This document shows, piece by piece, positions 3,940 through 61,255 of a stretch of 64,000 nt of DNA; within the stretch, counting starts at the first letter, position 1; each line of letters starts with the position of its first letter. The notes under the pieces were generated by a model that saw nothing but the letters and a program-made list of their open reading frames with translations, had not been told where the DNA came from and searched no databases. Source of the stretch: Patescibacteria group bacterium (GTDB lineage: Bacteria > Patescibacteriota > Microgenomatia > Levybacterales > UBA12049); assembly GCA_038061615.1 (NCBI GenBank), contig JBBTYY010000015.1, positions 1,298 to 65,297 on the forward strand. The letters run 5' to 3'. The translations under genes were made by a program, and so were the position numbers.

Positions 3940-5001
3940 TTATGTCCAATTTTCTGTGCACCAACGTAGCGTTCTTTCTAATCCTTTCTCTATATCTATC
4001 TTCGGAAAGTATCCAAGCTCATTCTTAACTTTAGCCAGATCAGGACACCTGCGCTGAGATTCTCCCTGAGGGTAACCTTTTGGATATGGAACGTGCTCAA
4101 TCCTCAATTTATTGTTAAACATTTGGTTGAAGATTTTTGCTAAACGACTCATATCTATTTCATTTCGATCATTGCCAACATTATAGACCTCGCCATCTTT
4201 ACCACATAGTAAAGCGAGAAGAAAACCAGTCACTGCATCTGAAATATAACAAAATGTTCTTGTCTGTACTCCACTTGAGTACACTTGGATAGGTTTATCA
4301 TTTAACGCATTAAAAAGATAACTTGGGATGACTCTGTGATCATCCGGACGCATCCCTGGTCCAAATATATTGAATGGCCGTACGATTTTGCTAGGAGTCT
4401 TATAGAAATGTCTATACATCATGCATAGCGTTTCTCCTAATCTTTTTGATTCGTCGTAGTAAGACCGTGGGCCAATCGGGGACACATTCCCATTATATGT
4501 TTCCTTTGTAGGAATTACGTCTGGGGTTGGATCTCCGTATATCTCGCTTGAACTGAAGAAAAGAAAACTCTCAACTTTCTTTTTTTTTGCAATTTCCAGC
4601 ATATTTCTTGTACCAGTTACCGCTACATCGAGTGTCTCGAATGGATATTTACGATAGTAAAACGGGGAAGCAATTCCCGCTGCATGTATGATATAGTTAA
4701 TTTTACCCTCAAGATGCAAGGTACTTACAATATCTTGTTCGATATATTTGCAATGCTGCGTTTCATGTATGATTGATAAGCCCCCCTTAGGAGAGGTAAT
4801 ACGATTATCAATGACTATTATCTTACAGGGTTTTGGAAGGGTGTGCTCGTTAAGATAATTAATCGTACCCACGATGTATCTGCCTATAAACCCTAACCCA
4901 CCAGTTATTACAACGGTTTTCCCAGAGAGAGCAAACGCGCACTTACCAACAGCATTTACTATTTCCTTGAAATCCTCCTGCATAATATGATTAACGCTCA
5001 T
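3940..5001 (-). CDS. UDP-glucuronate decarboxylase-like SDR (UXS/ArnA C-domain family)
   Basis: 353 aa. GGLGFIGRYIV, IIHAAGIASPFYYRKYP, SSSEIYGDPTPDVIPTKETYNGNVSPIGPRSYYDESKRLGE and RPFNIFGPGMRPDDHRVIPSYLFNAL...YSSGVQTRTFCYISD match the UXS/ArnA-C signature blocks. Confidence 0.7.
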   Translation of the reverse strand: MSVNHIMQEDFKEIVNAVGKCAFALSGKTVVITGGLGFIGRYIVGTINYLNEHTLPKPCKIIVIDNRITSPKGGLSIIHETQHCKYIEQDIVSTLHLEGKINYIIHAAGIASPFYYRKYPFETLDVAVTGTRNMLEIAKKKKVESFLFFSSSEIYGDPTPDVIPTKETYNGNVSPIGPRSYYDESKRLGETLCMMYRHFYKTPSKIVRPFNIFGPGMRPDDHRVIPSYLFNALNDKPIQVYSSGVQTRTFCYISDAVTGFLLALLCGKDGEVYNVGNDRNEIDMSRLAKIFNQMFNNKLRIEHVPYPKGYPQGESQRRCPDLAKVKNELGYFPKIDIEKGLERTLRWCTENWT

Positions 5002-12471: not shown

Positions 12472-13599
12472 ATGAAAAGAGTTTTATTGGTATCCCATTA
12501 TACAGGAACGCCTGGCGGACCGGTAGATAAGTTTTACGAGTTCTTAAAAAGAGAAAATACGGTTTATGATATTCGTCATCCCCTCTGGCTAAACAGCAAC
12601 TTACCCAGCATTATCAGCGATGGACACAAAGAAACTGCTTTTAGAATTTATTCCCCCATCCGATATCTGTTAGAAGGCCTCATTACTGTGTTCTTTTGGT
12701 ATCGGTTTTTTGGCAGATCAAAGAAAATAGATCTTGCAATTTGTTTTGATTCGCTCTCTTTTATTCATATATTCATGTTAAAATTTTTATTTCATGTAAG
12801 CAAAATTGTATTTTATAATATTGACTATTCTCGAGAACGTTTTAAAAACAGAGTAATGAATTTTATTTATCAAAAAATTAGCCTCTTCTCTTACAAAAAA
12901 TGCGACTACTTTTTTTCACTGTATGACACATTCATTAAAGAAATCGACCCGAAGGGAACATTTGCATACAAAAATTATTTAGTTAAAACTACAGTTAACA
13001 CACGCTCTATTAACACCCGGTTAAAAAAAAATAAAAACTCTCTAATCTACGCCGGTGTCTTGGACTATGGCTCTGTGAACTTTGACTCCCTTCTTGCTGC
13101 GCTAAAAAAACTAAAAGAAGACGGAGTTGAATTTCGGTTTGACATTTATGGAAAAGAAGGGCCAAACGGTGAATTGCGAAAAAAAATAGCAAAACTTCAT
13201 CTTGAGAAATTTGTGTTCTTAAAAGGTGTCGTAGAAAATAAGATACTAATCGAAGAGATCCTTCCGCGATATAAAATCGGGGTATGTCCATATGCTACGA
13301 AGAAAGACCGTTTGGCCCCGGATCATGTATTCCTAGGTTCCGATTTAACAGCCAAGCTTGTGGATTATATAGCAGCAGGCTTACCAGTTGTTACTACCGA
13401 AATTAACGATGCTTTTAATATGATAGAGGAAAATAAGTTCGGTTTTTTAGTCAACACAACGGAAGATTGGTATATAGCAATTAAAAAATTATTTATAAAT
13501 CAAACTCTCTATGCGGAATATAAAAATAATGCTTTAAAGTTTGCTAAAAATTATGACGAAAGAAAAGTCTTAAATCCAATTTTTAAAAAAATCCTTTGA
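12472..13599 (+). CDS. GT4-like (group 1) glycosyltransferase
   Basis: 375 aa. The C-terminal half has a GT4 Rossmann pattern (LIYAGVL..., DIYGKEGP, AAGLPVVTTE). Start codon is adjacent to the stop of the previous gene. Confidence 0.6.
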   Translation: MKRVLLVSHYTGTPGGPVDKFYEFLKRENTVYDIRHPLWLNSNLPSIISDGHKETAFRIYSPIRYLLEGLITVFFWYRFFGRSKKIDLAICFDSLSFIHIFMLKFLFHVSKIVFYNIDYSRERFKNRVMNFIYQKISLFSYKKCDYFFSLYDTFIKEIDPKGTFAYKNYLVKTTVNTRSINTRLKKNKNSLIYAGVLDYGSVNFDSLLAALKKLKEDGVEFRFDIYGKEGPNGELRKKIAKLHLEKFVFLKGVVENKILIEEILPRYKIGVCPYATKKDRLAPDHVFLGSDLTAKLVDYIAAGLPVVTTEINDAFNMIEENKFGFLVNTTEDWYIAIKKLFINQTLYAEYKNNALKFAKNYDERKVLNPIFKKIL

Positions 13600-13606
13600 A
13601 ACTACA

Positions 13607-15793
13607 TTAATTCTTAAATATGAAGTTACGTCTTATCCCTATTAAAAGTACAACTAGTACAATAACCGTAAAAAGAGATACTAATCTTCCATAATAAAAA
13701 TATTTTTCTTGGGTGTAATAGACCTTAACATTATATTTACCAACTTTATTAAGCACAAAACTATTTAAGCCATTTTTTGTTTTATTCGAAGTTACGTATT
13801 TCCCGTCGATTCGTGCAATCCAATACGGACTGAAGTTTTCTGAGAAAACAAGCTTAGTAGGCTGCGAAATTTCTATATCCAAATCGTATGCTGTAGGACT
13901 AAGTATCTCATAGATCACTTTTCCTTCTCCCTGTAGCCAAAAATGGTTCTTGTATGATTGGGTTTCGTAAACTGTAATTTTGCCGGTTTTTATCTTTTTT
14001 AACCAACCTATATTATCTAATTGTTTTTCGAGATTAACTCTTTGTTTCTCATCGTATTTTCTGTCCCTCATGAAGATCTCCCCTATTGAATCGTATGGGA
14101 TAATTACATATTTTACAGACAGTTCTTCTAGTAATCTTTTAGATTCTGGTCTCTGTAATTTAGAAACTGTCTGGGCAGAATTTGCTTGCAGTGAGCTTGC
14201 CGAATCTGTTGCTTTAAAAAGTGGTTGTACCTCAACTGCCGGATGAATATTTGACGCGAAGGTAAATCTTTGCTGTCTTGGAATCCAAAGAGTTCGGAAA
14301 AAATCTGGTTGATCATACAAGAAGTCTTTTAGCTTTATGTATTCGCTTGGTACTTCATGTTTTTCAAACGTCCCCCCAAGCTGACCAAGAAAAACCGGCC
14401 TAATCAATAGTATTAAGTATAAAGTGATAAGTATTAAAAATAAGTTTTGGAAATTAAAAATTTTGTTTTTTATTGAAAATTGAAAATTGAAAATTGAAAA
14501 TTTATTATGCAATTCTAGCGATTCATAAATTTTCCAAATGCTAAAAGGTATCAACACAGAGTAAGACAGGGCGATTAGTGAATAGAATTTAGTTGAGTCT
14601 CTAAACATATTCATTCCGGGAAAATTTTGAAATAACCAGGAGTTAATTTCGCTAAATGGCGGGCTTGCGCCTTTGGCTAGAAATGCGCCAACCAAACCAA
14701 GCAAGGCAAAGAATATAATTGCTCCATTGTTAAATTGCTTCATTGCTACATTATTGTCAAATTTTTGATTTTTAATTTGTATTTTTGATCTTTGATCTTT
14801 AATTTTTGATATAAAAAGCAAACTGCTATACGCAAGTATCGGCAATATTAAAAACTCCGGTTGCAAAAAGTATATTTTTCCAAATATGTTTTCCGGCCAG
14901 TTAGGATGAAGAAGGGAAATACTATTTGAAAAATTTGCAAAACTAAAAAACTCAAATCCGGACACGCTAACAAAACCTTCCGGTATTGGCAAATTCTTGG
15001 TAAACAACAAGGGAAAAATCCAATAACTGTGAAGCAAAACCGCAATCCCAATAGGAATAGCAAAAGTATAAAGTAGAAAGTATAAAGTAGAAAGTATTTT
15101 CTCCCTTAGCGTTTTTACACTTAATGCATAATACGTCGTACTTAATACTGCATAGATTGCAATAGCAATCATACTTAAGTAAGCGATTCTGGGATCAAAC
15201 ATGACTTGAAGCGACAAGACCAATCCAGCAATAATTTGTAATTTGTAATTTGTAATTTGTAATTTGTAATTTAATGCGGAGGAATTAATTAAATTAACGA
15301 GTTTTATAAACCTTGCAAGAACAAGCGGTGCGATGGAGTAAGCCAACGCTACCCCCATCTGTCCTCCTCCGACTACCATTAAAATATATGTATTTGCAGT
15401 AAAAATAAGCGCAGATAGTCCTATCTGCCAAAAGCGGCTTCTGGAAAAAATAGTTTTTAAAAGATAAATGCTTGAAGAAATTGATAGAGCAATAAAAAGT
15501 CCAAACCAAAACAATTTATATCCAATAGCCCATGGTATATGCAAAATGCTAGTAGAAAGGTAAGCGCTAAAATAAAGATATTGATCCAGATAGTATGTTA
15601 GGATTGTCCCGCCAAGCCCATTACCATGAACCAAGCTCCAGGCAGGCGGAAACAATGTAAATTCTTTTAAGGTCTCATTAAAAAAATAGGGCCAATCTCC
15701 CCCAATTATGTTTGCATTAACAAACCATGAATAATAGATATCCACAAGCAAAATAATAAAAATACTAGTAAATAACATGCTCAATTTGCTCAT
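13607..15793 (-). CDS. Large polytopic membrane protein, YfhO/AftD-like putative GT-C glycosyltransferase (paralogue family A)
   Basis: 728 aa. More than 12 predicted TM helices, a periplasmic domain, and a C-terminal FSENFSPYW...TM anchor shared with 15790..19476 and 20673..23120. Contains several heptanucleotide repeat tracts in frame. Confidence 0.75.
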   Translation of the reverse strand: MSKLSMLFTSIFIILLVDIYYSWFVNANIIGGDWPYFFNETLKEFTLFPPAWSLVHGNGLGGTILTYYLDQYLYFSAYLSTSILHIPWAIGYKLFWFGLFIALSISSSIYLLKTIFSRSRFWQIGLSALIFTANTYILMVVGGGQMGVALAYSIAPLVLARFIKLVNLINSSALNYKLQITNYKLQIIAGLVLSLQVMFDPRIAYLSMIAIAIYAVLSTTYYALSVKTLREKILSTLYFLLYTFAIPIGIAVLLHSYWIFPLLFTKNLPIPEGFVSVSGFEFFSFANFSNSISLLHPNWPENIFGKIYFLQPEFLILPILAYSSLLFISKIKDQRSKIQIKNQKFDNNVAMKQFNNGAIIFFALLGLVGAFLAKGASPPFSEINSWLFQNFPGMNMFRDSTKFYSLIALSYSVLIPFSIWKIYESLELHNKFSIFNFQFSIKNKIFNFQNLFLILITLYLILLIRPVFLGQLGGTFEKHEVPSEYIKLKDFLYDQPDFFRTLWIPRQQRFTFASNIHPAVEVQPLFKATDSASSLQANSAQTVSKLQRPESKRLLEELSVKYVIIPYDSIGEIFMRDRKYDEKQRVNLEKQLDNIGWLKKIKTGKITVYETQSYKNHFWLQGEGKVIYEILSPTAYDLDIEISQPTKLVFSENFSPYWIARIDGKYVTSNKTKNGLNSFVLNKVGKYNVKVYYTQEKYFYYGRLVSLFTVIVLVVLLIGIRRNFIFKN
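14472..14499. repeat. (ATTGAAA)x4 tandem heptamer inside a ~100 nt 7-nt-periodic stretch (14411-14508)
   Basis: Directly visible tandem copies. Flanking DNA continues with the same 7-nt period (tattaag tataaag tgataag tattaaa ...). Lies inside CDS 13607..15793 and encodes ...FNFQFSIFNFQ... Confidence 0.9.
15233..15274. repeat. (AATTTGT)x5 perfect tandem heptamer plus a degenerate sixth copy
   Basis: aatttgtaatttgtaatttgtaatttgtaatttgtaatttaa. Inside CDS 13607..15793 and encodes NYKLQITNYKLQI. A 14-mer x2 (agtataaagtagaa) lies nearby at 15065-15092. Confidence 0.95.
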
Positions 15794-41120: not shown

Positions 41121-41158
41121 ACTTCAATAATCAATAAACATACGACAATAAGCAATAA

Positions 41159-41527
41159 TCATTTGCTAAGACGCAGCGTTTTAATCTTGCTCCATAAAAG
41201 ACGACTTATTTCATCTCCCAGATCTAACAGGCTTTCTTTACCTCTTTCTTGAATTAATTCTTGTTCATAAGAAAAGTAAATCAAATATTTTGTTTCTTTT
41301 GTGGAGCCTAATGCAATTTCTAGAAATCTTCTATGGTCTTGCTTGCTTATTCTTGCATAACCTTCTACTAAATTAAGCGGAATAGATAAAGCTGCCCTTC
41401 TTAATTGAGAAGTAATTCTAAATAATTCTTCTTTAGGGAAAGTTTTTGTTATTCTATAAACTTCCTTTGCTAGTTTATCTGCTTTTATTAGTATAATGTC
41501 GTTTTCCGAACCGACTCTTTTGTCCAT
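41159..41527 (-). CDS. Four-helix-bundle protein (TIGR02436 / '23S rRNA intervening-sequence protein' family)
   Basis: 122 aa. YRITKTFPKEELFRITSQLRRAALSIPLNLVEGYAR is the family signature. Flanked on both sides by non-coding spacers containing caataatca direct repeats. Confidence 0.7.
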   Translation of the reverse strand: MDKRVGSENDIILIKADKLAKEVYRITKTFPKEELFRITSQLRRAALSIPLNLVEGYARISKQDHRRFLEIALGSTKETKYLIYFSYEQELIQERGKESLLDLGDEISRLLWSKIKTLRLSK

Positions 41528-41595
41528 ATTTTAATATATGACTATAATCAAAGATCAATAATCATGGGTAGAAAAAATTATTCCTTGTTTTTTGT

Positions 41596-42345
41596 TTATT
41601 GTTTTTTGTCCTTGTCATAGTAATGTAGAATTTTTAACCTATAAAAAACTGCGGCGGTGTCCCACAACATCCAAAAAATAACTCTCCAAAAACTAGTCGA
41701 AGTTATGCTTCCTGATCCTCTAAAATTTAGTTTTATGGGAGCTTCGTAGATTCTTGTATATCCAAGCTTGTACGCTACAGCTAAAGTCTCGACGTCAAAA
41801 GCAAATTGTTTCACTAATAACCTTGGGAATACATCCCTAACTACTCTTTTTTTAAAAAACTTTAGCCCAACCTGTGTATCTCTTACATCGAATCCAAAAA
41901 GCAAATGAGTAAAAGTTCTGTATCCCCATGACAAAATTTTTCTTTGTATTGGATAGCTAACTATGGAATCCGGATGAAGTTTACTTCCTATAATAATATC
42001 TGCGTCATGCAATTTTATAAAATCAAGGAGAATCGAGATAGAAGAACTCTCTATGTCCATTCCGGCATCCATAAATCCAATTACATCTCCCTTTGCTTCT
42101 AGCATTCCCAGCCGCACAGCGTTGCCTTTACCTAGGTTTACTTTATAACCCAAGACCCTTACGTTATTATTTTTTACTTTTTTGGCTTTTTCATAGGTTT
42201 TATCCAAAAAACCGTCAACAACCACGATAATCTCATACTTGCAATCAAGCTTTGAAAGAGTTTCTGCAAGACTTTCAATATTTAAAACAATTGTTTTTTC
42301 TTGTTTATAAGCAGGGACAACTAAAGATAAAGTTTTAATGTTCAT
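41596..42345 (-). CDS. GT2 polyprenyl-phosphate sugar synthase-like (DPM1/GtrB-like catalytic domain, no TM)
   Basis: 249 aa. LSLVVPAYKQEKTI, IIVVVDGFLDKT, GKGNAVRLGM and FMDAGMDI. Confidence 0.7.
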   Translation of the reverse strand: MNIKTLSLVVPAYKQEKTIVLNIESLAETLSKLDCKYEIIVVVDGFLDKTYEKAKKVKNNNVRVLGYKVNLGKGNAVRLGMLEAKGDVIGFMDAGMDIESSSISILLDFIKLHDADIIIGSKLHPDSIVSYPIQRKILSWGYRTFTHLLFGFDVRDTQVGLKFFKKRVVRDVFPRLLVKQFAFDVETLAVAYKLGYTRIYEAPIKLNFRGSGSITSTSFWRVIFWMLWDTAAVFYRLKILHYYDKDKKQ

Positions 42346-42420
42346 ACTTTATGAATTGATTGATTTAAGATTTAAGATTTATGACTTATGACATTTTTCT
42401 TAAGCCTTACTGCATGCATC

Positions 42421-45468: not shown

Positions 45469-46510
45469 AAGCCCTAACTGTTTGTTCTGCTGTTTTTTTC
45501 CAGGAAAATTTACCCGATTGCTTAAATCCCGCAGCAGAAAATTCTTTTCTTAATTTTTCATCTTCAAAAACTTCTGTTATGTCTTTTGCTATTTTATCTG
45601 AATCATATGCATCTGTATAAAAAGCCGCATCTCCCGCTACTTCAGGGATTGATCCTTCTTTAGTTGTTATAACGGGACAGCCACATGCCATTGCTTCTAA
45701 GATAGGCAGGCCGAATCCCTCATACAAACTTGGCATTATAAACACGGTTGCCAAATTATATAATACTACTAAGTCTTCTGTTTCAACAAAACCGACCCGC
45801 AAAATATTTTTATTCCCTTCAACTAATTTCTGAACTTCCAATAAATCTTGATTCCAAGGGTTGTTTTTATCAAAGTCGGATGAAACTAGAGTTTTTCCCA
45901 CCATAACCAGTGGAATCCTTGATTTTCTTGCAGCTTCCACTAATCTTGGAAGATTCTTGTTCCATGTAACATCCCCTACATACAAAGCAAACTTTTCCGG
46001 CAAATTATACTTCTCTCGAATTTTCTTAAGTCTTAAGTCATCGGTCTTAAATCTTTTAAATTCTTCTCCTGCGGCCAGATAGATAACTTCAATTTTTTTC
46101 TCACTTACGCCCGTAAATTTAATTATGTCTCTTTTTGAAGATAGTGAATCTGCAATTATTAAATTTGCTTTCCTCAGAGAGGCTTTTTGAATAAGCCACT
46201 TAAAGCCCCCCCTTACTCCTTTTGGGAAATATTTAGGAAAAACCAGAGGCGTTAAGTCATGAACAGTAACTATAGTTTTACATCGATTGAATAGCGGTAA
46301 CGTAATAAAAAATGGCTCGAAGTAAGGATAATGGATTAAATCTGTATCTTTGGATAAATTTTCTCCTCGAACAAAAAAAGTATACTTATTTTTGGGAAAA
46401 TACTTAACCAACGATCTTTTCAGATTGTTAATATAAAAACCAACCCCTCTTACTCTATGCTGAATTAAACCTTTTTTCTCGATTGGTGAAACATCAATAG
46501 CTATTTTCAT
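45443..46510 (-). CDS. GT4 (group 1) glycosyltransferase
   Basis: 355 aa. [33 protein letters not shown] (EX7E motif region). Confidence 0.75.
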
Positions 46511-49289: not shown

Positions 49290-49813
49290 AACGTTTTACT
49301 TCTTATAGCTATAGACGTATCGATAGTTGTCCAAAGATTTAGATTGGTTGGGGTATCTTTCTCCGGCGTCCATTTAAATTTATCAGGAACATTATTTTTT
49401 AATTTTTCAAACTCTTCAATGTGTTTCCTTGAAGCTTCTTTTAAAATTTTCTGTTTTTCGGATGTATTTTTTCCTTCTTTTTTTGCGGAAAGCAAATAAG
49501 GATAAATTTTCTCAAAGTATTGATTGGACTTAAGAAGAGATTTATATGCGAGGAGATATTGTTTATATTCAAATAGGGTTTTTGCTTGCACTAAATATTT
49601 ATCCGAAAGTCTTTGATAATAGTATGACTTACCGAAATTCCCAAAATACCAAAAGTAAGATACTTTTTCTATAACTTGATTAATTGTGTAAAACTTATTT
49701 CCGGGCATTTGTGAAGGATACGGAAGAACATAAGTTGACCCTGCATAAGCAGAAGTCGATAAGTACAAGAAAAAAACGAGGAGAAGTAATGTTTTCCATA
49801 GGCAACTTCTCAT
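49286..49813 (-). CDS. Secreted hypothetical protein (signal peptide)
   Basis: 175 aa. N-terminal MRSCLWKTLLLLVFFLYLSTSAYA signal peptide, Tyr/Lys-rich mature part, no recognisable domain. Confidence 0.45.
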   Translation of the reverse strand: MRSCLWKTLLLLVFFLYLSTSAYAGSTYVLPYPSQMPGNKFYTINQVIEKVSYFWYFGNFGKSYYYQRLSDKYLVQAKTLFEYKQYLLAYKSLLKSNQYFEKIYPYLLSAKKEGKNTSEKQKILKEASRKHIEEFEKLKNNVPDKFKWTPEKDTPTNLNLWTTIDTSIAIRSKTL

Positions 49814-50805
49814 TTTGAATTTTGAATTTTGAATTTTGAATTATTGTTATGCCACTCCCAAGCGGTTTTAACTATTGTCTCTAAGCTTGAATATTTTGGC
49901 TCAAAATTAAGTTCTCGTTTAATTTTTGCAGGATCTGCTATTAAAACTTCTGCGTCCCCTGGTCTTTTATCGGCAATTTTTACTTTAAAATCTATTTCTG
50001 ATACTTTTTTTACCATCTCTAAAACCTCTTTATTAGAATATCCCTTACCGGTTCCGACATTATAGAAAAATCCTCCGTTATCTCTCCCAAGCTTATCCAA
50101 AACAAGAAGGTGAGACTCAACTAAATCTATCACATGAATATAATCGCGAATGCATGTTCCATCCTTCGTATTATAATCATTGCCGTAGAGACTAAGCTCT
50201 GAACCTTCTAAAGCTGCCTTAACAGCAAGAGGAATTATGTGTGTTTCGGGATTATGCTTTTCGCCAAGTCGCGCGTCCAAAGATGCGCCTGCCGCATTAA
50301 AATATCTAAGACTTGCAAAATTTAATCCATAGATCCTGTTATACCATGATAAAATTTTCTCAACCATCAGCTTGCTTTCTCCGTATGGATTTGTGGGATT
50401 TGTCACATGATCCTCGGGAATTGGAATTTTCATTGGATTTCCATAAACACCTGCGGTTGAAGAAAATATAAAAGATCCAACTTTATTTTTTACTGCATTC
50501 TCAATCAGCCTCAATGCCCCAAAAACATTATTCTTAAAGTATATGCTTGGGTTTTCCATTGATTCTGCCATAGAGATGCAACCTGCAAAATGTAGAATTG
50601 AATCAAATTTGTTTTCTTTAAATAAGCTATCGATAAAACTTTCATCTGAAACATCTCCTTCTACTAATCTTGCTCTCGAATCAACAGCTTCTTTGTGTCC
50701 TCGGGACAAGTTATCTAAAACAGTTACCTCATCTCCTCTCTCAAGGAATCTTCTAACCATAAAGCTTCCAATATATCCGGCACCGCCAGTAACAAGTATT
50801 TTCAT
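49810..50805 (-). CDS. galE: UDP-glucose 4-epimerase (GalE-like)
   Basis: 331 aa. MKILVTGGAGYIGS, HFAG, SSTAGVYG, YGESKL and the overall GalE pattern. Confidence 0.8.
   Translation of the reverse strand: MKILVTGGAGYIGSFMVRRFLERGDEVTVLDNLSRGHKEAVDSRARLVEGDVSDESFIDSLFKENKFDSILHFAGCISMAESMENPSIYFKNNVFGALRLIENAVKNKVGSFIFSSTAGVYGNPMKIPIPEDHVTNPTNPYGESKLMVEKILSWYNRIYGLNFASLRYFNAAGASLDARLGEKHNPETHIIPLAVKAALEGSELSLYGNDYNTKDGTCIRDYIHVIDLVESHLLVLDKLGRDNGGFFYNVGTGKGYSNKEVLEMVKKVSEIDFKVKIADKRPGDAEVLIADPAKIKRELNFEPKYSSLETIVKTAWEWHNNNSKFKIQNSK
49812..49839. repeat. (ATTTTGA)x4 tandem heptamer at a gene junction
   Basis: Directly visible. Encodes the C-terminal NSKFKIQNSK of the GalE-like gene and overlaps the start of the downstream gene. 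Confidence 0.9.
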
Positions 50806-50813
50806 AGTTTGTA

Positions 50814-50841
50814 AGCCTTAAAGACTTAAGACTTAAGACTT
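50814..50841. repeat. (AGACTTA)x3 + AGACCTA tandem heptamer filling the intergenic spacer
   Basis: Directly visible between the galE start codon and the stop of the four-helix-bundle gene. The same TAAGACN/AAGTCTT heptad family recurs at 42363-42397, 51208-51235, 51682-51716, 59957-60023 and 61662-61749. Confidence 0.9.
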
Positions 50842-51202
50842 AAGACCTAAGTTTCCAATATTTTATCAAGGAATTTACCATTTTGCTAATTTCTTCTGCA
50901 TCCATCTGTAAATTATCGTAGGTAGATTTCGAAATATAGCCTAAATCCATGGAAAGGATAAGATAGTATTTAACCTCTTCTAGAGATCCGTTTGAAATAT
51001 ACAAAAACTGAATAAATTCTTTCTTATGGTTTCTAGCATTTCCTTCTATAATATTTGCAACAATCGAAACACTAGCTCTTCTGATTTGACTTATTAATCC
51101 AAATGTCTCGTGTTGAGGAAACGTTTTAGTGATTTTATAAATTTTAATTACGAATTGATGAGCTTTTTTATAAACTTTTAAACTTTCGAATTTGTTTGCC
51201 AT
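50840..51202 (-). CDS. Four-helix-bundle protein (TIGR02436 / '23S rRNA IVS protein' family), second copy
   Basis: 120 aa. YKITKTFPQHETFGLISQIRRASVSIVANIIEGNAR. Bracketed on both sides by TAAGACN-type heptamer tracts. Confidence 0.7.
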   Translation of the reverse strand: MANKFESLKVYKKAHQFVIKIYKITKTFPQHETFGLISQIRRASVSIVANIIEGNARNHKKEFIQFLYISNGSLEEVKYYLILSMDLGYISKSTYDNLQMDAEEISKMVNSLIKYWKLRS

Positions 51203-51216
51203 AATGCTCTTACTTC

Positions 51217-52014
51217 TTAAGTCTTACGTCTTAAATACTTTACATACGCTACGGGAAATCGAAGGGAAGAAAAAAGAGAAAACACAAATCCCGGCCAGAG
51301 ATCCATAAAACCTTTATGTCTGAAATAAGTAATCAAAAACCAATGCGGAGGTTTTAAGAACACAAGTCCCAACCCATACAAAATTTTTTGAAATCTGTTC
51401 TTATTTTTAAGTTTATCTTTGGTTTGGCTTGAGATAAGACCTGTATATCTGCTCCATTTCAATATATATTCAGAAAAATCTTTGTAAGGATAATGCAATA
51501 ACGCTTCATCTAAATATCCCACTTCGCCATCTACCTCCGCCTGCTCATGAACATCTTTTTGCGGAAGTCTTCCTCTGCCTCTTTTATAGAGTCTTAAGGT
51601 GTAATCCGGATATTGCCCTCCTTTTAATAAAAACCGTCCCAAAAACCAATTTTTTCTGGGAATCCAATAACCGTTGATATCAGACTTAGGACTTAAGACA
51701 TAAGACTTATGAGATAAAATTTCTTTAATTTCATTTGCAAGTTCAGGTGTAACTCTTTCGTCTGCATCAAGCTGAAGTATCCAATCACAAGTTGCCATAT
51801 CAATTGCCATCTGTTTATTAATATGAAAAACGGGTTTGTTTGTTGTTATTTTTATCCTTGCCCCAAATTTTTTGGCAATTTCAACAGTTTTGTCTTTTGA
51901 TGAACCATCTACCACAACTATCTCATCGGCAATATCTTTTATACTGTTAAGACATGCGGAAAGATTATTTTCTTCATTATATGTTGCCAAAACCACGGAA
52001 AGAGTTTTTCCCAT
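51217..52014 (-). CDS. GT2 glycosyltransferase
   Basis: 265 aa. LSVVLATYNEENNL, IVVVDGSSKDKT and QLDADE (DxD). Confidence 0.75.
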   Translation of the reverse strand: MGKTLSVVLATYNEENNLSACLNSIKDIADEIVVVDGSSKDKTVEIAKKFGARIKITTNKPVFHINKQMAIDMATCDWILQLDADERVTPELANEIKEILSHKSYVLSPKSDINGYWIPRKNWFLGRFLLKGGQYPDYTLRLYKRGRGRLPQKDVHEQAEVDGEVGYLDEALLHYPYKDFSEYILKWSRYTGLISSQTKDKLKNKNRFQKILYGLGLVFLKPPHWFLITYFRHKGFMDLWPGFVFSLFSSLRFPVAYVKYLRRKT

Positions 52015-59530: not shown

Positions 59531-61255
59531 TTATTTATCGACCACTCTTATTGCTGAAGATTTATCGGGATAGTCAATCCTTGTGATGGTATGGAATTCT
59601 TCAGCAAAATCATCTTGACCTCCAACTAGTAATATATTATTTTCTTTTTCAGTGTAGTAATTAAAGGATCTAAATTCAAAAATATCAAATTTATTGCCAC
59701 CTTCTTTAAATCCTCCTGATCTTGTACCACCTTGACTTAAATATTTATATGGATCATATTTTGAATAAAATAGAAAAAACATATATGACTGATCCATTAT
59801 CCCCACATTCGAGACGATTATCTTATTGTAATTTTTATGAATAGGCGCAATAAAATCTACTATTTCCTTGTATCCATATTGCCAATACTTCGCATGAAAA
59901 TAATTTTGCTGAACAAAGTACTGATTAAGATAGTAAACAAAGTTTACTACAGTAAATAAGACGTAAGACGTAAGACCTAAGATTAATAAATATTTTCTTA
60001 AGTCATAAATCTTAAGTCTTAAATACGAAGCTCTGACGGAATAAAGAATTTGAATTATTCCTATTGCAGTAAACACCTGAAAAGTAGGAAGAAAGTTTAA
60101 GGTGCGAACCGCATGAGGGACTCCGCTTGTGATTGAAGCCGGAATTGGAGCAATCAAAAACCAGGAGAATATAAATAATTTTGTTTTTTTATCAAATTTG
60201 CCAAAAATCAAACCATAGATGCCTATAAAAAAGAAAGGAAATTCAAATAAGTACAAAAGTCCCATATTTGGCGCGTGATGCCTTGATATGTCTCCTGTAA
60301 TGAATAGCCAATTTAAATCTAAATGAGATAGATAGCCTCCGGCTACATATTTTGCGAATTCTATTCTACGATTATCTAAGACTAATCCCAAGATGTCGTT
60401 ATTTGCTTTATCTCTTGCAATTTTTTCTGTATTTGCCTCAATTATTGAAGCGTTCGAAAAAATACTAACTCCCTTAGCCCTAGAAAGCGCATCCTTATTT
60501 GTTAAGGTAAAAAGAATCAATGGCAGACAAATAATTGTAAAGATTATGAGTGATATGTATATATATTTTTTTCTTATTGAAAAAAACTCTTTTCTAAAAG
60601 AGGATACAAGAATAGCTATCAGAAGAGGAACGAAAACTTTCTCGCTTTGATATACATGAAGACTCAATCCCAACATCAAAGCACTTAATAATAAAAACCA
60701 TGGTTTTTTAAAGGCTTTTAGGAAAAACAATATTCCAAAAACATTTAGAGCCACACCAACGTTTGCCTCAAATGCAACTCGGGAAAATTGAATATGCCAT
60801 GGAGAAATTGCAAGAAGGAAGGCTGATAGCAGCGCTATCATCTCAGTATTTAGTATTTTGTATTTAGTATTTTGTATTTGTTTAGGATTTAGAATTTCGG
60901 ATTTTGGATTTGTTTTGAACAACTCTTTAACCAAAAAGTAAGTAGCAATTACAGCAAGCACGCCAAAAACTGCCGAAGGAAGCCTTACAGCAAATGTATT
61001 TAAGCCAAATAATGCAACTGCAGGAATAGAAAAATATGCGTAAAGAGCAGGTTTGTAGTCATCAAAAGACCTAAGAACAATCGGCAGAAACTTACCGTAC
61101 TCGTCTCTTCCTGTATGCAAAAGAGAGTAGGCATTGTAACCTAAGGCAACTTCGTCCCAGTCAGGAGAAATTGGAACTTTTCCAAAATCCCAAAGTCGAA
61201 GAATTGCCGCTGTGAACAAAATTAAGCCCAAGATTATCAAAACTTTCTTATTCAT
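59531..61255 (-). CDS. PMT/ArnT-type (GT39/GT83-like) GT-C membrane glycosyltransferase (second-family paralogue 1)
   Basis: 574 aa. The N-terminal loop WDFGKVPISPDWDEVALGYNAYSLLHTGRDEYGKFLP carries a DE motif and a ~45 aa first periplasmic loop as in ArnT/PMT. ~12 TM and a C-terminal soluble domain. Contains heptad tracts at 59957-60023 and 60845-60914. Confidence 0.75.
   Translation of the reverse strand: MNKKVLIILGLILFTAAILRLWDFGKVPISPDWDEVALGYNAYSLLHTGRDEYGKFLPIVLRSFDDYKPALYAYFSIPAVALFGLNTFAVRLPSAVFGVLAVIATYFLVKELFKTNPKSEILNPKQIQNTKYKILNTEMIALLSAFLLAISPWHIQFSRVAFEANVGVALNVFGILFFLKAFKKPWFLLLSALMLGLSLHVYQSEKVFVPLLIAILVSSFRKEFFSIRKKYIYISLIIFTIICLPLILFTLTNKDALSRAKGVSIFSNASIIEANTEKIARDKANNDILGLVLDNRRIEFAKYVAGGYLSHLDLNWLFITGDISRHHAPNMGLLYLFEFPFFFIGIYGLIFGKFDKKTKLFIFSWFLIAPIPASITSGVPHAVRTLNFLPTFQVFTAIGIIQILYSVRASYLRLKIYDLRKYLLILGLTSYVLFTVVNFVYYLNQYFVQQNYFHAKYWQYGYKEIVDFIAPIHKNYNKIIVSNVGIMDQSYMFFLFYSKYDPYKYLSQGGTRSGGFKEGGNKFDIFEFRSFNYYTEKENNILLVGGQDDFAEEFHTITRIDYPDKSSAIRVVDK
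60845..60914. repeat. Ten consecutive 7-nt-periodic units (agtattt agtattt tgtattt agtattt tgtattt gtttagg atttaga atttcgg attttgg atttgtt)
   Basis: Directly visible. Lies inside CDS 59531..61255 and encodes NPKSEILNPKQIQNTKYKILNTE in the first periplasmic region. Confidence 0.85.

Follow-up and report, generated by a model that had tools for sequence, protein, structure and literature searches.

Heptanucleotide tandem repeats at conserved loop sites of a membrane glycosyltransferase gene in Levybacteria-type bacteria

Introduction

Contingency loci of pathogens that are based on simple sequence repeats (SSRs) use units of 1–5 nucleotides (nt), lie preferentially near N-termini and occur in ON and OFF states that differ between isolates. 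Repeats inside the open reading frames (ORFs) of Borg elements have unit lengths divisible by three, so that a change in copy number is neutral to the frame. A proven switch with a heptanucleotide unit within a coding sequence (CDS) is neuO of Escherichia coli K1, which is carried by the CUS-3 prophage and contains 3–53 copies of the unit AAGACTC at its 5' end (PMC13001214). The copy number differs between isolates, neuO is OFF in 65.6% of 64 complete genomes, and its switching has been measured (PMC13001214). In this study, we analyzed a 64-kb stretch of DNA (contig JBBTYY010000015.1; "the window" in the following) from a bacterium of the Candidate Phyla Radiation (CPR), with a focus on CDS 13607..15793 on the minus strand, a gene of 728 amino acids (aa) for a membrane glycosyltransferase. 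An earlier note, made from the letters of the window, had described 7-nt tandem repeats inside this gene and proposed them as candidate phase-variation switches.

According to Mrazek 2007, as reported in PMC4679880 and PMC4692102, the long SSRs (LSSRs) of many bacterial genomes most commonly have heptanucleotide units, a polymerase contact of ~7 nt has been proposed to favour the slippage of heptamers, and non-triplet units are usually rare in ORFs. The heptamer cases described are mostly intergenic and comprise GGGNATC in Xanthomonas and Nostoc, TAACTGA in the Beggiatoaceae, and the short tandemly repeated repetitive (STRR) sequences of cyanobacteria. Heptamer-binding proteins have been proposed for the TAACTGA repeats (PMC4679880). 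No literature tying CPR bacteria to SSR phase variation was found in the searchable library.

The analyses presented below indicate that the tracts in CDS 13607..15793 are probably heptanucleotide microsatellites that were generated by slippage, occur lineage-wide and are tolerated in loops of the encoded protein, with a capacity for switching that is latent rather than demonstrated.

Results

Heptanucleotide tracts in CDS 13607..15793

Tandem arrays were called with Tandem Repeats Finder, and the four tracts of the gene are numbered here in its direction of transcription (minus strand). Tract 1 (15232..15272; 100% matches) is a perfect array of 5.9 TAATTTG units over 41 nt, which reads (CAAATTA)n on the coding strand. 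It encodes LNYKLQITNYKLQII (aa 174-188) in the loop after the transmembrane (TM) helix 148-166, hence three units correspond to the peptide NYKLQIT, as had been read in the earlier note; the perfect tract described there as (AATTTGT)x5 is likewise real, but has 5.9 copies instead of five. Tract 2 (15063..15097; 100% matches) is a perfect 14-mer made of two diverged heptamers and encodes ILSTLYFLLYTF (aa 233-244), with which TM helix 236-254 begins. This 14-mer repeat had also been spotted, but is present in 2.5 rather than two copies. Tract 3 (14761..14810; 79% matches) is a degenerate array of 7.3 units, of the (ATCAAAA) type on the coding strand, and substantiates the further 7-periodic stretch suspected near 14758-14812; it encodes SKIKDQRSKIQIKNQKF (aa 328-345) in a Lys-rich loop. 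Tract 4 (14472..14502; 100% matches) consists of 4.4 perfect ATTGAAA units, which on the coding strand appear as (AATTTTC)n. The peptide that it encodes, KFSIFNFQFSI (aa 431-441), belongs to the loop that precedes TM helix 451-469. Tract 4 is adjoined by a weakly 7-periodic stretch on the same strand (14411..14471), which encodes IKNKIFNFQNLFLILITLYLI (aa 441-461), comprising the end of the loop and then the next TM helix. The claim of ~100 nt with strict 7-nt periodicity at 14411-14508 was overstated: a lag-7 identity of 1.00 is reached only in the 31-nt core of tract 4, whereas it is 0.54 in 14411-14471 (other lags, 0.24-0.42). Per 21 nt of heptamer array, one 7-residue peptide repeat is encoded. 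All tracts are situated mid-gene (aa 174-188, 233-244, 328-345 and 431-441 of 728) and the perfect ones have at most 5.9 units, so that they are neither long nor near the 5' end.

The periodicity was compared with 30 dinucleotide-preserving shuffles of the window for periods 2 to 21. With a minimum of 10 matched bases, the window contained eight perfect runs of period 7 versus 0.2 in the shuffles, and with a minimum of 14 matched bases, four versus 0.0. Besides 7, only period 14 was enriched. These results agree with the earlier statement that perfect 35-nt heptamer tracts are hardly to be expected by chance even in AT-rich DNA.

Gain or loss of one unit had been predicted to shift the frame and truncate the protein. 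This was reproduced in simulations, where adding or removing one unit led to stops at aa 201/203 (tract 1), 342/346 (tract 3) and 448/438 (tract 4). With a unit length that is not divisible by three, each of the tracts is a latent site of frameshifting.

Host, protein fold and membrane topology

The host is a Levybacteria-type CPR bacterium, and relatives of the protein stem almost exclusively from Levybacteria (Levyibacteriota) and neighbouring Microgenomates. The contigs were sourced from the Hainich groundwater wells H51 and H52, and the genome has a GC content of 30-36%. The protein encoded by CDS 13607..15793 is identical (100%) to NCBI MEK7502014.1 from a Patescibacteria metagenome-assembled genome (MAG; P0001 in our homologue set). 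The gene had been called "giant", but it comprises only 728 aa; the large ORF of 1228 aa is its upstream neighbour.

None of the Pfam families was matched by the 728-aa query, and 4 of 64 homologues weakly matched YfhO (PF09586; best E-value 1.1e-6). A profile search by sequence against solved structures yielded no match for the protein either, so a fold search with Foldseek was needed. The AlphaFold2 model, built on the 64 homologues, had a predicted local distance difference test score (pLDDT) of 89 and a predicted template modelling score (pTM) of 0.90, and matched AftD (6w98; E 2.8e-7), AglB/STT3 and ArnT. It displays the layout of a GT-C fold membrane glycosyltransferase (YfhO/AftD-like), namely a membrane domain of multiple helices and, C-terminal to it, an extracytoplasmic beta-rich domain (aa 480-695). 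The residue D33 in the motif GGDWPYF of the first extracytoplasmic loop is invariant across the 64 homologues and is a candidate catalytic residue. The window as a whole is a glycosylation island with many GT-C, GT2 and GT4 enzymes, sugar epimerases and aminotransferases; this setting and the GT-C model support the earlier label of a surface-glycosylation membrane protein.

Tracts 1, 3 and 4 coincide with lower-confidence loops between the helices of this otherwise confident model, with pLDDT values of 64 for the block at aa 171-180 (tract 1), 55-58 (tract 3) and 76-78 (tract 4). Helices were counted back from the beta-rich domain and forward from the D33 loop, and by helix parity the three loops would be cytoplasmic; they are also Lys-rich, as the positive-inside rule predicts for this side of the membrane. 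If this topology is right, the encoded peptide repeats would not be surface-exposed, and peptide-level antigenic variation would fall away as a role. We also considered that the 7-residue repeats might behave as coiled-coil heptads, and dropped this idea because only about two heptads are present.

Heptamer arrays are widespread in the lineage

The regions around the orthologous gene were surveyed in 80 loci (1.41 Mb; one genome per species), and all Levybacteria DNA sampled flanks glycosylation genes. Perfect arrays with period 7 were by far the most numerous (86), compared to 14 with period 6, nine with period 14, seven with period 8 and 0–6 with any other period. Among the 94 arrays from the survey and the window, 85 are in frame inside long ORFs, in the orientation that is stop-free on the coding strand, and only one of the remaining nine marks a split gene. 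ORF-like frames make up 95% of the surveyed DNA, and array density in ORFs is about half of that outside, close to the cost expected if one of the two orientations were lost. The recurrent units were AATTTTC, AAATTTC, AAAATTC, AAATCTC, AAAGTCA and AAAATCA. This family of units is explained by the genetic code: an AT-rich heptamer that contains an A-run is free of TAA, TAG and TGA in all three frames only where the A-run follows a C.

The lengths of perfect arrays were bimodal (loci L012-L091, the window and loci L092-L211), with a mode at 30-35 nt (~4.5-5 units) and very few arrays above 35 nt, whatever the unit. Rehm et al. reportedly observed a four-unit preference in G-rich heptamers and ascribed it to quadruplexes; that AT-rich units have a similar length preference points to a more general cause.

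As a control, public metagenomes were scanned for (AATTTTC)x4, which retrieved 120 contigs of 24-60% GC from many habitats. The arrays were located in sense orientation in ORFs in 81 cases, in antisense orientation in none, and outside ORFs in 46 cases. In-frame (AATTTTC)n was present in a class I aminoacyl-tRNA synthetase, where it forms a linker between the catalytic and the anticodon-binding domain, in a second class I synthetase and in RibF (all confirmed by Pfam), and also in a protein that was read by eye as PurL, which Pfam did not confirm. Essential genes like those for the synthetases and RibF are implausible targets of ON/OFF switching, and such arrays are thus generally tolerated as loop or linker insertions. 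Heptads occurring everywhere had been named at the outset as evidence that would speak against switches, and this is indeed what we found: 86 arrays in 1.4 Mb, ~90% of them in frame in ORFs, and further arrays in essential genes of other bacteria. Two of the metagenome contigs (L131 and L173, one at 39% GC and one at 60% GC) carried many long heptamer arrays of several unrelated units with up to 40 copies. Hence, genomes rich in heptamers are not confined to the CPR and the previously described cyanobacteria, but occur well beyond them.

Array sites are conserved among orthologues, the units are not

In orthologues whose proteins are 35-50% identical, 39 arrays mapped to the five sites of the query and to a sixth site at aa 622-674, and the units differed by species. 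Most frequently occupied were the sites at aa 426-451 (16 orthologue arrays) and aa 171-186 (11 arrays), followed by aa 452-465 and aa 622-674 (four each), aa 218-244 (three) and aa 328-335 (two).

The homologue P0004 from another groundwater species (L223, 3001-4914) has a mosaic structure, with ~100% DNA identity at aa 201-300 and 380-440 amid 68-87% identity, which implies a probable recent exchange of gene segments between species. Its tracts 2 and 4 lie within the ~100%-identical blocks and equal those of the window in copy number. In the diverged parts, tract 1 reads (AATTTAA)2(AATTTCA)2 in P0004 versus (AATTACA)5.9 in the window, and tract 3 is a 49-nt (7-unit) insertion in the window relative to P0004. 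A more distant relative from well H51 retained seven arrays with unchanged copy number, had one array swapped for another unit within 97%-identical flanks and lacked one array; one further array contained a GC-rich 24-nt insert, CCCTTCGGCTTCACTCAGGGCGAG (L002 1706-1883, aligned to 60845-60915).

Short GC-rich elements were also observed in the same variable loops of the homologues P0002, P0003, P0005, P0007, P0024 and P0073, where they encode peptides such as LRFAQDD, SFRMT, PRLRRAGK and ADQPLAE. LRFAQDD and SFRMT look like one DNA sequence read in different frames. These elements seem to be a second kind of small insert at the same tolerant sites.

In otherwise near-identical genes, we further observed divergent patches of ~45-130 nt that are centred on array-bearing loops, with two to four alleles per site and a different heptamer unit in each. 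Examples are 51640-51720 compared with L212 10253-10347, 46024-46055 compared with P0137 and P0138, and P0019 compared with P0159 (aa 317-356). No donor for these patches, including the one in the GT2 gene of L212, was present in the DNA compared.

The tracts are constant among strains

The 90%-identity cluster of the protein contained five full-length variants that are 1-4 substitutions apart and have identical repeat peptides. With a long-read contig, six assemblies of the species carry identical in-frame tracts in CDS 13607..15793. Tract-length ON/OFF alleles were absent from all ten species-level orthologue clusters (~35 sequences), which were constant in length except for a mosaic patch at the loop around aa 328-345 and a one-residue change elsewhere; 7-residue length polymorphism was not seen among strains. 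On this basis, the proposal that the tracts serve as phase-variation switches of this gene was not supported.

Several apparent truncations were examined as OFF alleles and rejected. The truncated cluster members P0121, P0124, P0125 and P0128 break at homopolymers (after GFEF; at GWLKK), and P0124 and P0125 come from a 159-kb contig of the long-read type that is riddled with single-base indels, with 127 gaps in 20 kb of alignment. The 587- and 563-aa forms of P0160 resembled N-terminal truncations, but reflect the choice of start codon by gene callers: DNA within the gene is identical in the 587-aa loci, and the 563-aa locus differs by one substitution and no indel.

Two intergenic arrays were variable. 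In a 20-kb comparison of the window with contig L004, the sole indel was the loss of one unit (-7 nt) in the intergenic array 42348..42391 (GATTTAA core; no strand assigned). In a 2-kb comparison with L010, the sole net indel was again the loss of one unit (-7 nt), in the likewise intergenic (TAAGACT)n array 50812..50851 (no strand assigned) at the 3' end of a 23S_rRNA_IVP-like gene. Strains with these one-unit changes are 99.9% identical. Unit slippage is thus real in this organism and fast relative to substitutions, and its observed cases were confined to places where a shift of frame has no consequence.

A comparison over 22 kb with L011 revealed 54 substitutions and no indel. About 36 of these substitutions are packed into ~380 nt (13050-13430) in the 3' part of the adjoining GT1 gene (12472-13599), which looks like a short recombination tract. 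In L004 (Hain_H52_02um_R1, 7x coverage), three of nine substitutions relative to the window are nonsense changes in three glycosylation genes, namely G332* in a PMT_2 gene, S122* in a GT4 gene and E22* in a GalE-like epimerase (window positions 60262, 46146 and 50742). G>T and C>A changes form the majority of the nine. The nonsense changes are either circulating loss-of-function variants of glycan genes or oxidative-damage artefacts in a low-coverage assembly.

Other heptamer arrays in the window

The window contains further heptamer arrays at dispersed positions, some of them within other GT-C, GT2 and GT4 genes and some at the ends of genes or in intergenic DNA. A perfect (ATTTTGA)x4.4 array (49812..49842, minus strand) encodes the C-terminal tail NNSKFKIQNSK* of the GalE-like epimerase, and this tail is different in the relatives L002 and P0148. 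The interdomain linker of a GT4 glycosyltransferase contains a degenerate (TCTTAAG)-type array (46024..46055, minus strand), with another unit at the same site in close relatives. A GT2 gene carries a degenerate (AGACTTA)-type array (51682..51717, minus strand); here, the 99.8%-identical contig L212 has a perfect (AACTCAG)x4.6 array inside a divergent patch of ~85 nt, where the window has the degenerate (AAGTCTT)n. A PMT_2 gene of the GT-C type contains the paired, mutually inverted arrays (TAAGACG)n and (TCTTAAG)n (59957..60024, minus strand) and also composite heptamer arrays that encode NPKSEILNPKQIQNTKYKILN (60845..60915, minus strand).

Two small genes on the minus strand encode 23S_rRNA_IVP / bAvd-like four-helix bundles (50840-51202, E 4.7e-42; 41159-41527, E 2.2e-31), and both are flanked by inverted repeats made of heptamer arrays. 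The array 50812..50851 pairs with 51208-51240 around the former gene (50813-50845/51208-51240; 33 nt, 82% complementary), and 41125-41148 pairs with 41585-41608 around the latter (24 nt, 79% complementary). This layout is reminiscent of the stem-flanked ORFs in rRNA intervening sequences. The region of the 50840-51202 cassette is ~98% identical in one relative, in which the adjoining DNA is just 80-90% identical. The two nearby bAvd-like genes prompted us to consider a diversity-generating retroelement, an idea that was dropped: the divergent patches are not adenine-specific, and no reverse-transcriptase gene was found among the genes examined, although no scan aimed at all ORFs of the window was made.

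Discussion

Origin and maintenance of the arrays

The best-supported view of our data, which we hold to be more likely than not, is that the tracts in CDS 13607..15793 are heptamer microsatellites that arose by slippage, belong to a lineage-wide repeat class, and are fixed at present in this gene and fluid over evolutionary time. Replication slippage would create and homogenize 7-nt arrays everywhere in the AT-rich genomes of Levybacteria-type organisms, and three selective filters may then shape what persists. Within genes, only units that are stop-free in all three frames of the coding strand would survive, and such an orientation filter would account for the recurring units composed of an A-run, a T-run and C, such as AATTTTC, AAATTTC and AAAATTC. 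A second filter would retain only net lengths that keep the frame, and a third would let arrays persist only where the protein tolerates low-complexity insertions. In the studied gene, such positions would be the three Lys-rich, putatively cytoplasmic loops of tracts 1, 3 and 4, with tract 2 and the stretch 14411-14471 falling into TM segments. Since no one-unit variants of this gene occur in the sampled strains, the tracts behave as tolerated loop sequence with a mutational cost and not as a demonstrated switch.

Several observations weigh against tolerance as the whole explanation. A purely tolerated load should decay by interrupting point mutations, and the perfect arrays at the same sites in species with only 35-50% protein identity suggest maintenance or selection. 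The arrays are also concentrated in genes for surface glycans, where contingency loci are classically located, with the qualification that glycosylation islands are all that was sampled in the lineage. Moreover, 99.9%-identical strains do show one-unit polymorphisms, and consensus assemblies are blind to a minority of OFF cells. Two contigs of a related species, L213 and L214, have 0 substitutions over 21 kb and differ by exactly three deletions of whole units in arrays within CDSs; two of these deletions truncate GT2 genes. These arrays (at 4637, 6498 and 14259 in L213) measure 35, 31 and 30 nt in L213 and 21, 24 and 23 nt in L214, and L214 retains 0 repeated 21-mers. Shrinkage to 21-24 nt fits loop collapse by a small-k de Bruijn assembler, and we rejected this pair as decisive proof of ON/OFF states and keep it as ambiguous. 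Finally, a GT4 N-domain gene in L071 is frameshifted at a 14-nt (two-unit) gap directly after a perfect array, as compared with two in-frame orthologues; this is one OFF-like case versus 85 arrays within intact long ORFs. A recurrent ORF of ~180 aa with arrays after "RRK", for which DUF5667 had been considered, is actually a GT4 N-terminal domain.

Alternative explanations

The tracts could be true contingency loci, in which slipped-strand mispairing would frequently turn this gene and many of the glycosylation genes around it ON and OFF and thereby provide a mixed glycan repertoire, for example against phage or for host attachment. We regard this as possible, if on the unlikely side. It would be in line with perfect non-triplet arrays whose change by one unit truncates the protein, with the glycosylation-island setting, with intergenic arrays that differ by exactly one unit between near-identical strains, with the truncating deletions in L214 and the split GT4 gene of L071, and with the persistence of arrays at conserved sites over deep divergence; neuO sets a precedent for a heptanucleotide switch within a CDS (PMC13001214). 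However, all six assemblies are ON with identical copy numbers, ~35 orthologue sequences in ten clusters lack tract-based truncation, and the prevalence of arrays in intact long ORFs (85 of 94) is unlike the OFF frequency and copy-number range of neuO. The tracts are also short, mid-gene and redundant (four or five per gene), the AATTTTC unit recurs in aminoacyl-tRNA synthetases and RibF, and the L214 differences fit an assembler artefact. Phase variation is thus mechanistically reasonable, but disfavoured on consensus data. A more far-reaching version, which we consider rather doubtful, is that Levybacteria keep short arrays at fixed loop positions in many glycosylation genes as a distributed phase-variation system, where one-unit slips would toggle glycosyltransferases and diversify the glycan of an ultrasmall episymbiont with respect to phage or host recognition.

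If the arrays were instead kept for the encoded peptide, slippage would build and tune Lys/Asn/Gln/Ser-rich cytoplasmic loops and linkers in 7-residue steps, similar to the disordered regions that repeats create in Borg elements. Such a role could be seen in the recurrence of arrays at the same loop and linker sites across orthologues, in their location between the Pfam domains of GT4 and of a tRNA synthetase, and in Lys-rich peptides that match the positive-inside rule in regions of lower pLDDT. Yet a 7-nt unit is a poor tuner, as two of three slippage events cause a frameshift, some arrays encode hydrophobic TM segments instead of linkers, and peptides at one site vary freely between species without any 7-residue polymorphism among the strains; we consider this explanation improbable. 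Even less credible, in our judgement, is a role at the nucleic-acid level, for which the location in ORFs would be secondary and the arrays would be bound by a regulatory or single-strand-binding protein, form stems for RNA processing or be hotspots of recombination. Mutually inverted arrays do bracket the two 23S_rRNA_IVP-like genes and are paired inside two PMT genes, array-centred divergent patches exist in near-identical genes (GT2 in L212, the GT4 alleles, P0019/P0159), and binding proteins have been suggested for another heptamer (PMC4679880), but the sites share no consensus unit, the units change freely, no candidate binding protein emerged, and the four tracts of the studied gene are not paired as inverted repeats. 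An origin of the tracts by chance in AT-rich DNA or from assembly errors has almost no credence left. Low-complexity DNA is common in genomes of 30-36% GC, but the excess over the shuffles (8 runs vs 0.2) is specific to period 7, identical tracts recur in at least six independent assemblies, one of them long-read, and the arrays are far shorter than a read.

Implications

Independent of any switching, this lineage tolerates non-triplet microsatellites within genes at about the density expected from orientation constraints alone and at deeply conserved loop sites, which textbook SSR surveys do not predict. The arrays serve as raw material for loops, linkers and even membrane segments. In CPR MAGs, both de Bruijn assemblers and gene callers are vulnerable at these arrays. 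Apparent frameshifts there should hence be checked in the reads, and frameshifted glycosyltransferase genes in these MAGs may partly be assembler artefacts. If the arrays do switch, uncultured CPR bacteria would practise a pathogen-style bet-hedging with glycans, with a bearing on host attachment and phage escape; a distributed system of this kind would be the first contingency-locus system described in the CPR, and would be based on a 7-nt unit.

Comparison with known systems

Like the contingency loci of Haemophilus, Neisseria and Campylobacter, the gene studied here combines non-triplet repeats with a glycosyltransferase or surface function, and a frameshift by slipped-strand mispairing is to be expected (PMC3315296). 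Units of 1–5 nt, an N-terminal bias and ON/OFF polymorphism between isolates, which characterize those loci, were not found for this gene. With neuO it shares a 7-nt tandem repeat in the CDS of a surface-glycan-modifying enzyme, the need for the correct frame to obtain the full-length product, and the equivalence of three units with seven residues; the AAGACTC unit of neuO also resembles the (AAGACTT)n arrays elsewhere in the window. It differs from neuO in having at most six perfect copies, in mid-gene loops, with four or five tracts per gene that are identical and in frame in six assemblies. In Borg elements, perfect and recently formed tandem repeats in ORFs likewise add low-complexity peptide (PMC9879509), whereas the unit here is 7 nt, not divisible by three, and the setting is a bacterial chromosome. 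The closest parallels to LSSRs of the Mrazek type and to STRR sequences are the lineage-specific excess of period 7, the short arrays of few units, the several unit families per genome and, for LSSRs, the whole-unit changes in copy number between strains (L004, L010). Those LSSRs are over-represented in non-coding DNA and under-represented in ORFs, whereas ~90% of the arrays described here are in frame in ORFs, at an ORF cover of ~95%, and they occupy conserved protein sites with AT-rich, stop-free units in a CPR host.

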